DNA of 64,000 bases. It comes from Escherichia coli (GTDB lineage: Bacteria; Pseudomonadota; Gammaproteobacteria; Enterobacterales; Enterobacteriaceae). Within the stretch, counting starts at the first letter, position 1. Each line of letters begins with the position of its first letter. The DNA lies in assembly GCF_003018235.1 (NCBI RefSeq), contig NZ_CP027439.1. One strand, written 5' to 3'. Position numbers: made by a program. Positions 39,001 through 45,000 of this stretch are shown piece by piece.

Positions 39001-42000
39001 AAATGTACAGAGGATTAACGTTCTATTTCACAAAGCTCATCAATCTTTTTCGTGTCTTTTCTGAACCGAACTGCAACACCATCCAGGGACTAAACACCCG
39101 TGGTGAGGTTATCAATGTCTGATACAGTGCATCTAACGAAACCCAGTAACAGTCCATCACTTCGTCCGGGTTAGGGGTTATTGTGTTTGTTAGTTTAGCC
39201 GCATATACCGGGCAAAGTTCATTTTCCATAATCCCACTGGTGTCTGTTGCGCAATAGCGAAATTCTGGATAAACAGGGGTTATATCAGTAATTTCTGCTC
39301 CGACTTCAAAGTGACAGCGGCGCGTAATGGCTTGTTCGAAAGATTCATTCAGCTGTGGATGTCCGCATACCGAGTTTGTCCAGACACCTGGCCATGCTTT
39401 TTTTCCAAGTGAGCGGCGAGTTATCAAAACCTGGCCTTCACTATTGAAGAGCCAGCAGGAAAAAGCCAGGTGGAGAGGGGGGTGAGTTGTGTGTACATCA
39501 TATTTTTCTTCCGTGCCAATGAATTCTCCTTTCTCATTCAGTAAAAGAACATATTCCCGTCCTTTCATCATGGCTCCTGATAATATATTAAAATACGTTG
39601 GATAATTCTGTGCTCATCTGTCCTTTACTGCGTCAGTGAGCACAGTTATGTTGATTTTTATTTATGCAAATAAACTGGCCCACAGGGCAGAAATCGGCAT
39701 AACCAGAATTAAGCCAGGTAGCATATTGGCGACGGGAAAAGCTTTAATATTACAAATACGTAGTCCGGTCGCGACCATTATCAATCCCCCCACGCAGGAA
39801 AAGTCGGCCATCATATCTGGTGTAATCAGATGCAATATATATACAGCCAGCATAGCCAGAGCTACTTGTACGATAATTAACGGAACCCCGATAGTCATTA
39901 CAGAGAACCCCAGCATGGTAGCGAAAATTGCCGCAGTGAAAAGGTCCAGCACAGTTTTTATGTATAAAATAGATGGATCTCCGGTCATCCCTTCATGCAT
40001 AGCGCCAAAAATACCGGTGCCACTGGCACAGAATAGCACCAGAATTGCGACAAATTTCTCAGTAAATTCATCATGCGTTAATCCCTGAACGGGTGGGAAA
40101 ATGCGGTTTATCAGTCCCCGGGTTGTTCCGGCAACTCTGCCAATCTGTTTTTCCAGGAAAAACATCTCGCCAATAATGGCTCCAATAACCATTGCCAGCA
40201 CCACCGCAGGCATGTATTTCACCTTGATTACAAGATTAATACCAAGACCAACCGAGCAAAGCCCGAAGGTCAGGGGGAGTGCCGTTTTTACGCGATCGGG
40301 GATGCGTGTACCGATAAGCGCACCGAACAAACCACCCACGATTACTGCTGCGCCATTCACATATGGTCCTGTTAACATCGGATTATCCTGACAAATTATT
40401 CATTGTAATTAAGAAGATCTTCCCCCCAGCGTGGAAGGTCTTTTATATTTAAATCAAATAAGTCGAGAGCACGGTTGACACTATGGGTCACTATCTCCTC
40501 AACCGTCTGTGGTCGCTGATAAAATGCGGGGACTGGAGGGAAAATTATGCCTCCCATCTCGGTCACTGTAGCCATATTGCGAATATGTCCCAGGTTTAGA
40601 GGGGTTTCCCGCGCCAGCAGAACCAGACGGCGACGCTCTTTTAGAACTACATCCGCGGCACGCGTCAGCAGATTGTCGGTCATACAGTGGGCAATGGCCC
40701 CCAGTGTTCTCATTGAACAGGGGGTGATAATCATCCCCTGCGTTTTGAATGATCCACTGGAAATTGCTGCGCCCAGATTATTAATTGGGTGGACAACATC
40801 CGCCATGGCAAAAATATCGTCAAGTCGATAATCTGTCTCCAGCTGGCAGGTTTTTTCTGCTCCTTTAGAAACTACGAGATGAATCTCAACATCCAGTTTC
40901 TTTAGAAGTTCCAGTGTCTTTACTCCGTACTGAAATCCGGATGCACCGCTAATTCCAACAATCATGCGTTTTGTTGCCACGGTTTTCTCCTTATTCGAAA
41001 TCCGGCAGGAAACGTTTCACATCAACCTCTTTGAATTTAGAACGTTCAAAGTGGCTTTTCAGATGGAATGGAACCGTGCAGTCAAAGATTGTTTTACAGG
41101 ATACCCCCTGTTGCTGAATGCTTGGGCTGTAATCTGGGACCTGAGACGGATCCAGCGGATGGCAGCGAACGCCAGGAATAGTGACAGTATCAACATCGCC
41201 CTGATAACGCGTTTGCATAGCCCACAGTACATCATCGCTATCGAAAATATCGACATCTTCATCGACCAGAATGACGTGTTTCAGCTCAGGGAACGCAGCG
41301 AAGGCGAGCAGGGCGGCCTGGCGCTGGCGACCTTCATCCACAGCTGCTGACTTTTTGAACTGCATCACTGCCAGCAATTTGCCCCCCCCAGCAGAATGTG
41401 CAAAAACATTCAGTAATTTTCCCGGCATTGCCCGTTCAACCATATCGAGGATGCTTGCTTCTGTCGGGATTCCAGCCATGTTCACATGTTCCTCTCCAGG
41501 CCCTACAGTGGTTCGCCAGATAGGATTTTTACGATGTGTGACAGCCTTTACTTTAATGACAGGGATTGCTTCTTTAGCTTCACCTGTATAGCCCGGAAAC
41601 TCCGGCATCGCTTTGCCTGTATTTGTATTCTGGTCTTCACGCAGACGGATATTTGGCAACAGCTCACCTTCAATGATGATTTCTGCGTGAGCTATTGCTT
41701 TTTCGTTGATGGTTTTGCACTGAACCATTTCAATGGCATGTCCTCGCAGGGAGCCAGCGATGCTCAGTTCATCAAAGCCCAGAGGCGTTGTTGGTGGCTC
41801 GAAGCAGGCGGCGATTTCAATCGCCGGGTCAACGCCAATACTGATTGAGATTGGTAACGGTTTACCTGCAGCTTCTGCCTTTTTGCGGAAAGCATCGATG
41901 TGACGCCCAGGGGTAAGCCACATGGAGAGTTCATCTTTGCTCTGAACGCACAGACGGTGAATGGTGATATCAGATTCATTTGTTTCCGGATCTGACGCGT

Positions 42001-45000
42001 AGCACAAACCCATCGTAATGTATGGACCTGCATCTTCTTCAGTATTCGTCGGTGCTGGTAAAAGTTTACGCAGGTCAAAATCGGGAGCTGTTGCAAGGTG
42101 AACAACTTCCTGTGCTGCTGCCGGAGCTGTTGTCAGGACAGGTGGAATTGGTGTCTGTACGGAGTCTTTCAGCAGATGCCCCAGACGTTCCGGAGGACAA
42201 TTCAGGAAGTGGCTGACGCGATTACGGGAACCATTAAGGCCAATAGCTACACTGATGTCGTTAAAACCTTTAATTTTTTTGAACATCATTACAGGACCAT
42301 TTTTACGGGTCGGGCGCTGACAGGTTCCACCTGCGCCAACATAACGATAAACGCCAGAAAGTTCCGCATGTGGATCTACTTCTGTATCGGTTTCGACATA
42401 TTCACCAGGTAATGTTTTTAGTAGCTCCAGTGCAGAACGGAGGTCATGAACATTATTTTTCATTGAGTTGCTCCTGTTGATTAGCAGTAAGACTGATGAC
42501 GGTGTACCTTAATATCCGACAAAAAATGCGACAAATACCGTTTACCTGTATCTGAGTAGATCAAAAAAGTGTGAGGGGCTGAAAACCTGATGTACACTCC
42601 CCAACAGCATACGGGACTGAGGGGATTTATGGATTTAAAGCGTTTACGTTACTTCTGTCGGGTGGTGGAACAGGGCTCAGTAAGTCGGGCTGCAAAAGTG
42701 TTGAATATGGCGCAGCCACCACTTAGTAAACGTATTCAGGAACTGGAGGATGAGTTGAAAACGCCGCTCTTTATACGCAAAGGTAATCGTATCGAGCCAA
42801 CAGAAGCGGGTTTTTTTCTCTATCGTAAAGCATGCGAGATCCTGCGTCAGGTGGAAGATACTACGCGGGAGACTATGGCTATTGCGCAAAAAAATAATCC
42901 CAAACTTCATCTGGGAATTACGCACCTTTTTCAGTCTTATTTCAAGTCGCTACTACTGGCATTTTGTGAACGTAATCCAGATATAGAAGTGAGCATATCA
43001 GTTACAGACTCAAGTCACCTGGAAGATTTACTTAATGAAGGTACAATTGATTTGGCTCTGATCCAACGACCGTATCATGATGATGGGTATGATGTTGTTT
43101 CTTTTGATCCCATAAAACCTGTGGCTGTAATCAGTAAAAAATGTTTGCCATACATATCTGATACGCCTGTTAACTATATAACACTGGCCAGCTTCCCGCT
43201 GATATTGTTACATCGGGCGAAGGATTCTGGCATCTATGAAAAACTGCTTGACTTATTCAGGAAGACAGGAGTAACTCCAGAAGTGTTAATGCATATATCC
43301 CAGCCGGGTATGATTATCGACTGGCTGGAGTCAGGGCTGGCTGCGGCCACTCTTTTACCTTCATCAGAAGTAGACGCAACTTGTTTACGCCATTGTCACG
43401 TGGTAGATATTTTCCCCTCCCCCCAGCTTTTTTATCCTGCGATGGTGAAAATGCCTGCTACTAACTGGATTCCAGAAGTAATGGAAATAATTGCAGCCGG
43501 ATATCCCTGCAACATGAATACAGTTATTCCATATGTTAAGGAAAGAGAAGTTTCGCTCACTCGTGACAAGTGAGCGAACACGTGCGGTGGATAATATGGC
43601 TACCATTCTAAACAACAGTCAATATATGTGTTAAATTAATGTTTGCTAATATATGTGCTGGTCTGCTATTGACTGGTCAGATATCAAGACCAACAATATA
43701 CAAGATGGAAATATTGATGACGATCAGCCGTTGGCTGAAAAAACAACATGTTCTCACTTGGTGCGTACAGCAGAAAGGTGAACTCTGGTGTGCAAATGCT
43801 TTTTATCTGTTTGATGCGGATAAAGTAGCTTTTTATTTACTTACGGAGGAAAAAACGCGTCATGCACAAATGAGTGGTCCAAAGGCACATGTAGCCGGAA
43901 CGGTAAACGGACAGCCTCAAACGATAGCATTAATCCGTGGTGTGCAATTTAAAGGTCTGATTCGTCTACTGGAAGATGAGGAAAGTCACCTCATACGGCA
44001 GATATATAATCGTCGTTTCCCTATTGCCAGAATGTTGTCAACACCAGTATGGGAGATCCGTATCGACGAAATCAAATTCACTGATAATACACTGGGATTT
44101 GGTAAAAAACTTGTCTGGCAACGCCCAATAACTGAACAGCAAGGAATATAATTTTCCCCTAGAACCAAAAAATGTAAATGTTGGGCAACTAGGAGGGGCA
44201 GGAAGAGCATCCGTGAGTACATTGCGGAGCAGAACCTGATAGCGGCCATTGAACGGGATGAACGGAAAACGAGCCTAGTCACCTGCACCATCGCGGCTTC
44301 GGGAAAACATATATTGTCAACGGACAGGAAGTGAAACTGCCAGAAGCTGCCAGACTACTCGGATATAGCGGCTTGTCCTCACTGCCTCACCGGATAAAAA
44401 AAGACAAAATCCCGCCCGGTGGTGATATAACTCACCTCATACCGACAAAAAAACATATGCCTGGTCGGGTAAGCCGTCCGCGCATATTTATTATTAATGG
44501 GCAGGAAGTATGATCCTACCCACGAATAGTGGACACACTGTTAAGCGAGTAAAATCGTTAACAAGGTGAACCATGACGCAAGCAAAATCTGTGAAGAAGA
44601 CATCCCGTAATCAATATACCCCGGAGTTTCGCCAGCAGGCACTGGCGCTGGCTGAGCGCATCGGCGTGGCCAAAGCCGCCCGGGAGCTCGGCCTGCACGA
44701 CTCTCAACTCTACGCCTGGCGCAGTAAACAACGTCAGCAGGGCTCCACCTCTGAGCGTGAGCAGCAACAGGCAACAGAAATCGCCCGCCTCAAGCGCCAA
44801 CTGGCCGAGCGGGATGAGGAACTGGCCATTCTCCAAAAGGCGGCCACCTACTTCGCCAGACGCTTGAAGTGAAGTACGGTTTTATACACCAACATTAGGC
44901 GGCGTTATCAGTGAAAAGCCTGGCCCGGGTACTGTGCGTCTCGCGCAGCGGCTGGTATGCGTGGCTGAAGCGCCGGCAATCCCCCTCGCCGCGGCAGATG

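Follow-up and report, generated by a model that had tools for sequence, protein, structure and literature searches.

Described decarboxylases and the plasmid locus

According to the references listed in PMC5605622, non-oxidative decarboxylation of gallate and protocatechuate has long been known in Klebsiella and Pantoea. The AroY enzyme of Enterobacter cloacae (EcAroY) has been described as a hexamer dependent on prenylated flavin mononucleotide (prFMN), which decarboxylates protocatechuate and, nearly as well, gallate, and which loses activity when R188, H327, K363, H436 or E289 is changed (Payer et al., PMC5656893). The present work concerns a stretch of 64,000 nucleotides of Escherichia coli DNA (contig NZ_CP027439.1, assembly GCF_003018235.1), hereafter the window, in which genes for a UbiD-family decarboxylase, a UbiX-type flavin prenyltransferase, a DUF554 membrane protein and a type-1 isopentenyl-diphosphate isomerase (Idi) follow one another on the minus strand, with genes for a LysR-type regulator and a YhbP-like protein transcribed divergently. 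The set is an AroY-type prFMN decarboxylase operon that has been copied from a chromosome onto IncF plasmids, and not a new kind of system.

The window UbiD aligns over its full length with EcAroY (5NY5/5O3N; 673 bits, 62% identity) and scores 658 bits against the AroY of Klebsiella pneumoniae (5O3M). In the alignment, window residues R170, R187, E288, H326, K362 and H435 correspond to R171, R188, E289, H327, K363 and H436 of EcAroY; judged from these positions the protein is of the AroY type and keeps all the residues required for AroY activity, and the loss of conserved prFMN- or metal-binding residues, which the initial annotation of this DNA had named as grounds for giving up its proposal, is not seen. 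Retention of the catechol-binding residues makes protocatechuate or gallate, that is 3,4-dihydroxylated benzoates, the likely substrates, so that of the aromatic or heteroaromatic acids first proposed the aromatic acid stands and the expected range is narrower. PMC5656893 also calls 'Arg181' essential; the deposited EcAroY sequence has Ser at position 181, and R171, the counterpart of Fdc1 Arg173, is probably the residue meant.

Scanning one genome for each species gave 304 relatives, of which 80 loci were kept and are those to which the counts below refer; their flanks were compared by tblastn and clustering of open reading frames (ORFs), about 100 related loci being gathered overall. These 80 best genomic relatives are 69-96% identical to the window UbiD, as against 62% for AroY, and on this comparison the window enzyme is not AroY itself but a member of a sister clade. 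Both clades are represented in K. pneumoniae ATCC 13883 (locus L020), whose two AroY-like paralogues show 89% (window clade) and 62% (the characterised AroY, 5O3M) identity; they may account for the separate protocatechuate and gallate decarboxylase activities of the older Klebsiella literature. The work of Zeida in 1998 is said to have found the gallate decarboxylase of Pantoea to be a hexamer of subunits of about 57 kDa.

The window enzyme and the AroY enzymes of E. cloacae and K. pneumoniae have in common the UbiD family, the absence of a D subunit, the essential residues and the expected substrates; the window enzyme differs in belonging to a clade of its own, which is accompanied by its own UbiX, DUF554 and LysR, and often by Idi or YhbP. 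The VdcBCD, EcdBCD and KpdBCD systems resemble the window in that a UbiX-type B gene adjoins a UbiD-type C gene, but their order is B-C-D, whereas the window has C-B without D, as the initial annotation had correctly remarked. For the window pair VdcC and VdcB rank first or second among the NCBIfam models and remain below their cut-offs (457 bits against 650, and 248 against 290). Assignment to VdcC (NF041204, VdcBCD type) was rejected on that score and on the lack of a D gene; a ubiquinone UbiD function (117 bits against a cut-off of 788) and an Fdc1-type ferulate decarboxylase (about 83 bits against 673 for AroY) were rejected likewise.

Gene content, control region and chromosomal origin

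The genes of the initial annotation are present as ORFs at their positions (Table 1), and their identities are upheld by NCBIfam, Pfam and PDB matches. In the profile hidden Markov model searches Idi (NF002995, 251 bits against a cut-off of 127), UbiX (NF004685, 261 bits against 188; TIGR00421, 223 against 109) and YhbP (NF002900, 246 bits against 176) pass their NCBIfam cut-offs, and DUF554 matches Pfam PF04474 (1.1e-63, model positions 1-219 of 220). The LysR protein is matched by 56 LysR-family NCBIfam models, the best at 8e-35 (residues 14-261), none of them above the equivalog cut-off. The four minus-strand genes are separated by 10, 17 and 90 bp and therefore fit one transcription unit. 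Neither these gaps nor the one of 165 bp held a small ORF in the ORF listing, and no D-subunit gene is present, in agreement with what had been noted before; its absence is explained by AroY enzymes acting without a D subunit.

The LysR / UbiD-UbiX-DUF554-Idi set is a conserved chromosomal cluster in many Enterobacteriaceae, among them Pseudocitrobacter (UbiD 96%), Enterobacter soli, Kluyvera, Kosakonia, Klebsiella, Citrobacter amalonaticus and Superficieibacter, with the order ygeR<-LysR<- ->UbiD-UbiX-DUF554-Idi <-lysS; on the chromosomes of this family it always lies between a ygeR-like lipoprotein gene and lysS-prfB-recJ-dsbC-xerD. The plasmid block is therefore a copy of this chromosomal cluster and did not arise on the plasmid. 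A synteny search, which had been suggested at the outset, recovers the same gene set among the 80 loci. Identity with a characterised chromosomal operon had also been considered: the block is indeed a copy of a chromosomal operon, but of one that is uncharacterised in the searchable literature, and a literature search found no description of a gene cluster combining UbiX and idi. Pseudocitrobacter was rejected as the direct donor, its DNA being 79.5% identical, its Idi 76% and its LysR 79%, with no tannase or YhbP gene nearby; the direct donor is an unsampled relative of Pseudocitrobacter.

Across the 80 loci UbiX is conserved in 66, a divergently placed LysR gene in 54, DUF554 in 52, Idi in 30 and YhbP in 21, while 48 have no linked accessory gene. 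The description of the module as self-sufficient does not strictly apply: in an E. coli host it is redundant, because ubiX, idi and yhbP are already on the chromosome. The operon does encode its own UbiX. Four families are common to the plasmid set and to chromosomal ubiD, ubiX, idi and yhbP (plasmid Idi is 57% and YhbP 79% identical to the K-12 proteins), but on the chromosome the genes lie scattered and belong to ubiquinone and isoprenoid metabolism, whereas the plasmid genes are clustered.

In an alignment of the LysR-UbiD intergenic region from 14 taxa, AAACGGTATTTG is invariant and TTTTTGAT nearly invariant, about 20 bp apart. The corresponding motif of the window, GACAAATACCGTTTAC...GATCAAAAAAG on the plus strand at 42530-42571, probably forms the core of the operator/promoter on which the divergent LysR acts. 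Scans of 37800-44700 for generic promoters and terminators did not exceed chance (15 against 11.8 and 9 against 6.5 expected from shuffled sequence) and were not used.

Idi and the supply of prFMN

The window Idi conserves the NSVCGHP and ENExCPV motifs and the His ligands of K-12 Idi. At 15 enterobacterial loci lysS comes next after idi, an arrangement identical to that of E. coli K-12, where idi occupies the same place; the idi of the Enterobacteriaceae cluster is the housekeeping gene in its ancestral position, and since this slot adjoins lysS-prfB-recJ, part of the Idi linkage is positional. Idi is nevertheless probably a functional part of the cluster, as comparison of loci suggests, and not a mere neighbour. 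It is kept with the cluster away from lysS in Lonsdalea (UbiD-UbiX-DUF554-YhbP-Idi), in Raoultella planticola, whose cluster ends Idi-YhbP, in Mangrovibacter, where a tannase homologue comes after Idi, and on the plasmids. In metagenome-assembled genomes of Peptococcaceae carrying the same UbiD clade, MerR-UbiD-DUF554-UbiX-MerR-Idi arrays are found, with Idi scoring 146 against the type-1 IDI cut-off of 127.

On other Bacillota contigs UbiX is followed by a gene for one LpdD::Idi fusion protein, the N-terminus of which matches the LpdD chaperone domain (PF21758, 7.6e-31; LpdD PDB matches, 3e-5) and the C-terminus the type-1 IDI (153 bits). Three further fusion proteins show 97, 75 and 71% identity, and in the two whose contexts were examined (P0242 and P0243) the fusion is the last gene of a MerR-UbiD-DUF554-UbiX operon on a Bacillota metagenome contig. 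LpdD has been shown experimentally to be a prFMNH2-binding chaperone (PMC10865409), and the prenyl donor of UbiX is dimethylallyl (pyro)phosphate (PMC13040415); fusion of Idi to LpdD is thus direct comparative evidence for Idi in prFMN supply. The earlier suggestion that Idi feeds UbiX therefore gains from the Bacillota UbiD-DUF554-UbiX operons and fusions, and loses in that the enterobacterial linkage is partly positional. At two loci with a UbiD-UbiX-DUF554-YhbP cluster (L088:1290-1973 and L089:1290-1973), a gene for DHBP synthase (RibB, riboflavin synthesis) adjoins the LysR gene; it may be a further cofactor-precursor gene recruited to the cluster.

DUF554 and YhbP

After UbiX, DUF554 is the most constant partner, occurring in both gene orders and in both phyla; its residues E71, E76, K141, D145 and R207 are invariant. 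Mn2+ is used by UbiD enzymes in prFMN binding. The predicted fold of DUF554 was likened to a ZIP (Zrt/Irt-like) transporter, with Foldseek matches that are not significant, and the protein is most simply taken to be a transporter, of the aromatic acid or phenol or of a divalent metal such as Mn2+. Sequence searches of the PDB gave no match for DUF554 or for YhbP; the PADLOC defence models matched neither of them nor the tannase; and the literature search yielded no functional study of DUF554, YqgA/YdfK included. One UbiD-UbiX cluster has two DUF554 paralogues (L085:3449-4174 and L085:5235-5960) with a LysR gene between them.

K-12 YhbP, the close relative of the plasmid protein, is annotated only as putative FMN-binding. 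The AlphaFold2 model of YhbP (mean predicted local distance difference test score 92.7) has PNPOx-like split barrels as its top Foldseek matches, and a PNPOx-like split-barrel fold binding flavin or heme is predicted. The YhbP-like genes found in or beside the cluster belong to six orders, namely Enterobacterales, Neisseriales, Pasteurellales (Lonepinella), Aeromonadales, Burkholderiales and Orbales; their products are 29-58% identical, with a clear set of invariant residues. The slot varies, the gene standing after DUF554, directly after UbiX or UbiD, before or after Idi, or on the opposite strand, and in loci of Gilliamella, Pollutimonas and Paraburkholderia it directly follows UbiX. A search starting from YhbP homologues found two metagenomic lineages in UbiD-UbiX-DUF554-YhbP clusters and one lineage that is not. 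At its canonical locus yhbP adjoins the stress gene yhbO (DJ-1/PfpI) and is three genes from ubiT-ubiU-ubiV, the genes of O2-independent ubiquinone synthesis, a pathway with a UbiD/UbiX step (E. coli K-12, L084:4473-4916; Mixta intestinalis, L098:6001-6432), for which reason YhbP might mature prFMN without oxygen. At locus L085 the cluster-linked yhbP lies between yraR-like and yhbQ-like genes, as at the canonical locus.

In Firmicutes of the same UbiD clade the corresponding place is held at 7 loci by LpdD-like genes and at 4 Bacillus loci by PhdC/YclD-like ones, which match PDB 9NK0/9SRG; of YhbP, LpdD-like and PhdC/YclD-like genes, no two kinds occur together at any locus. PhdC and YclD are prFMN maturases (PMC13040415). 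The PhdABC cluster of Mycolicibacterium fortuitum and the YclD clusters of Bacillales resemble the window in combining a decarboxylase, a prenyltransferase and a small split-barrel flavin-binding protein, and YclD-like genes take the post-UbiX slot in the Bacillus members of the window UbiD clade; PhdC differs in a conserved Glu pair and an ExW motif that have no obvious counterpart in YhbP. No LpdD-like gene was found in the window by tblastn with seven LpdD-like sequences (best E=0.26). It is possible, though somewhat unlikely, that YhbP/UPF0306, E. coli YhbP included, makes up a third class of prFMN accessory proteins, acting as a chaperone, a maturase or a donor of FMNH2, with DUF554 and Idi also dedicated parts of the supply; YhbP would then be the proteobacterial counterpart of LpdD and PhdC/YclD. 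A role of YhbP in prFMN supply is a well-motivated hypothesis drawn from gene neighbourhood and a modelled fold, and not a result; the literature search found neither a function for YhbP/UPF0306 nor a link to prFMN. Gahloth et al. (PMC10865409) postulated an 'as yet unidentified' helper for E. coli UbiD, which such a third class, if real, would name; it would also give a function to a conserved E. coli orphan and bear on the activation of UbiD in ubiquinone synthesis.

Proposed mechanism and alternative explanations

The plasmid copy probably represents an inducible enterobacterial operon that decarboxylates 3,4-dihydroxylated benzoic acids non-oxidatively, turning protocatechuate into catechol and/or gallate into pyrogallol. 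In the proposed mechanism, LysR would bind the conserved operator and turn the operon on in the presence of a phenolic acid; UbiX would prenylate FMNH2 with dimethylallyl (pyro)phosphate to give prFMNH2, Idi raising the pool of dimethylallyl pyrophosphate for this step; the YhbP split barrel may aid flavin reduction, delivery of prFMN or its oxidative maturation; and DUF554 may carry Mn2+, which UbiD enzymes require for prFMN binding, or else the aromatic acid or phenol. Release of the acids from plant esters would, on the ancestral plasmid, have been the task of a secreted esterase of the tannase family, whose gene is dead in the window.

Several observations weigh against parts of this scheme. 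The enzyme belongs to a sister clade only 62% identical to characterised AroY, and its preferred substrate is predicted. The linkage of idi on Enterobacteriaceae chromosomes could be positional, beside lysS. The plasmid YhbP is 79% identical to an ordinary chromosomal YhbP and is encoded on the LysR side, outside the operon; the mutual exclusivity of YhbP with LpdD or YclD is weak because the pattern coincides with the split between Proteobacteria and Firmicutes; and the YhbP profile shows no relation to the YclD-like one (hhalign probability 0.2%), so that YhbP is not a member of the PhdC family. Such membership was rejected also on the lack of an invariant Glu in the YhbP alignment (compare Glu47/Glu136); PhdC is absent from the top 50 Foldseek structural matches of YhbP, and the two are both split-barrel folds in the broad sense. 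Away from the Escherichia plasmids, a linked tannase is rare (2 of the 80 loci, on the opposite strand, 46% identity). Finally, the module is scarce among complete E. coli genomes and plasmids, and the decay of the tannase hints at weak selection in the E. coli host.

It could be argued that Idi and YhbP are passengers, housekeeping neighbours captured with the cluster from the donor chromosome, which contribute nothing to prFMN. The shared idi-lysS arrangement of the 15 enterobacterial loci, the closeness of plasmid YhbP to the K-12 protein, the canonical flanks of yhbP at L085 and the 48 loci in which the accessory genes are unlinked would all agree with this, but Idi stays with the cluster in the four contexts lacking lysS, occurs independently in Bacillota operons, with fusions to LpdD conserved at 71-97% identity, and the YhbP-like genes keep their linkage through several rearrangements in the six orders; the passenger explanation is considered unlikely. 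It appears quite unlikely, too, that YhbP is a small flavoprotein or heme-binding protein that detoxifies catechol, pyrogallol or quinone products and has no part in cofactor supply. Its structural neighbours are PNPOx-like proteins of mixed function, including the heme-binding or heme-degrading HugZ, ChuZ and HutZ, its canonical gene lies beside yhbO, and genes for short-chain dehydrogenases/reductases and NAD-binding proteins are often near the clusters; against this, proven prFMN helpers hold the equivalent position in Firmicutes, and YhbP directly follows UbiX in the three genera named above.

For the decarboxylase itself, another substrate class has to be weighed, either 4-hydroxybenzoate or vanillate, as in VdcBCD, EcdBCD and KpdBCD, or ferulate and other cinnamates, as in Fdc1. 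The best NCBIfam model is VdcC, at 4e-137, and the family of the neighbouring esterase includes feruloyl esterases; however, the VdcC score falls short of its cut-off and no D subunit is encoded, the Fdc1 score is far below that for AroY, and the catechol-binding residues R188, H327, K363 and H436 of AroY are all conserved, which makes other substrates very unlikely. That the segment is decaying cargo, a chromosomal fragment taken up by an IncF plasmid, without function in E. coli and heading for loss, would be in keeping with the internally deleted tannase, with the IS3-family element and yacB fragment that flank it, and with its great rarity among complete genomes and plasmids. The other six genes, however, keep their full length, and their identity among plasmids of E. 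coli and E. albertii is 97.6-99.8%; proteins of at least 90% identity are encoded on hundreds of Escherichia draft contigs (E. coli, E. marmotae and E. albertii; exact-cluster look-ups), with the tannase mostly intact; decay towards loss is accordingly judged highly improbable. UbiD/prFMN decarboxylases are sought as biocatalysts for muconate, catechol and pyrogallol and for CO2 fixation, their use being held back by poor cofactor loading or maturation in heterologous hosts, and the conserved, unstudied companions of this AroY-type enzyme, Idi, DUF554 and YhbP, are testable candidate factors for prFMN supply or maturation.

The tannase gene and ecological setting

Directly downstream of idi, the E. 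albertii plasmid pEA36_2 carries an intact gene for a 584-aa esterase (PF07519, 8e-129) with a signal-peptide-like N-terminus, whose nearest solved relatives are MHETase and the fungal feruloyl esterase B (FaeB). The truncated tannase gene reported in the initial annotation is indeed such a remnant: compared with the pEA36_2 gene, about 1.1 kb of the interior has been deleted, the 3' end being joined to the first third, and the product keeps the signal-peptide-like N-terminus and the GCSDG nucleophile motif and loses the lid and the rest of the catalytic triad. E. coli plasmid pSCU-111-1 has the same interior loss, and the 584-aa and 257-aa forms are both in circulation in Escherichia. Since tannase linkage outside Escherichia is found only in Mangrovibacter, it is a feature of the Escherichia plasmid lineage and not of the cluster generally.

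Among the hosts of the closest homologues are Brenneria, Lonsdalea, Gibbsiella and Rahnella, which are oak pathogens, the tannin-degrading koala symbiont Lonepinella, Gilliamella from the bee gut, and Phascolarctobacterium, and these hosts fit a role in coping with plant phenolics; the niches of Brenneria, Lonsdalea, Gibbsiella and Lonepinella are rich in tannin. In Lactiplantibacillus plantarum, tannin breakdown involves a tannase, the gallate decarboxylase LpdC with LpdB and LpdD, a LysR-type regulator and a gallate transporter. By description, though not by sequence, the ancestral plasmid set parallels this pathway, with an esterase to free gallate, a prFMN decarboxylase to remove CO2, a LysR-type regulator, a putative transporter and a candidate cofactor helper; it differs in that the helper in L. 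plantarum is LpdD and not YhbP, and in that the window tannase is of the PF07519 family and dead. In L. plantarum, lpdC and lpdB/lpdD lie at separate loci (PMC10865409).

Plasmid context and segment borders

The window derives from a conjugative plasmid, as first annotated, and the plasmid is of the IncF type: traI, traX, finO, repA(IncFII) and yacAB lie upstream of the gene block, and the region is 99.7% identical to pSCU-111-1, which is typed as conjugative IncF. Complete records carrying the module number 3 of 72,556 plasmids and 1 of 5,426 complete E. coli genomes. The module shows that genes for handling phenolic acids and tannins are spread by conjugative plasmids in E. coli, E. marmotae and E. 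albertii. The yacB fragment is probably where the acquired segment meets the plasmid backbone on its right-hand side; a search for direct repeats turned up no clean target-site duplication on either side of the segment.

Table 1. Features of the gene block and its surroundings in the window, and LpdD::Idi fusion genes of other loci
Feature	Position	Strand	Remarks
Tannase/feruloyl-esterase family gene, inactivated	38044-38857	-	remaining ORF 38084-38857, 257 aa
idi, type-1 isopentenyl-diphosphate isomerase	39023-39568	-	181 aa; RefSeq start 39568, ORF to 39571
DUF554 integral membrane protein, putative transporter	39662-40378	-	238 aa
ubiX, flavin prenyltransferase	40396-40980	-	194 aa; GTG start
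ubiD, AroY-type UbiD-family decarboxylase, predicted protocatechuate/gallate decarboxylase	40991-42463	-	490 aa
Divergent control region	42464-42628	unstranded	operator-like motif at about 42530-42571
LysR-type transcriptional regulator	42629-43573 (alternative start 42590)	+	314 aa; divergent from operon
YhbP/UPF0306 family protein	43705-44151 (alternative start 43639)	+	148 aa
yacB toxin-gene fragment	44196-44266		71 bp; directly after yhbP; 91-93% identity to yacB of many IncF plasmids
IS3-family element	44573-45735		orfA 99 aa, orfB 274 aa; immediately right of cluster
LpdD::Idi fusion genes (P0241-P0243)	L081:12850-13719; L094:6001-6861; L095:4231-5103

Close to the cluster on its upstream side, the two copies of a direct repeat some 250 bp long (36220-36472 and 37469-37716; 73-90% identity in three blocks) enclose the yacAB toxin-antitoxin genes and an exonuclease remnant. 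On the other side, positions 46000-47000 are very AT-rich (GC 0.30) and include a 183-aa ORF (46464-47015) whose C-terminus resembles a LuxR-type helix-turn-helix. Positions 47088-49850 code for an OmpA-family protein and for a YadA-like trimeric autotransporter adhesin of 642 aa, and in pSCU-111-1 fragmented S6 peptidase genes come after the OmpA-family and YadA-like genes.

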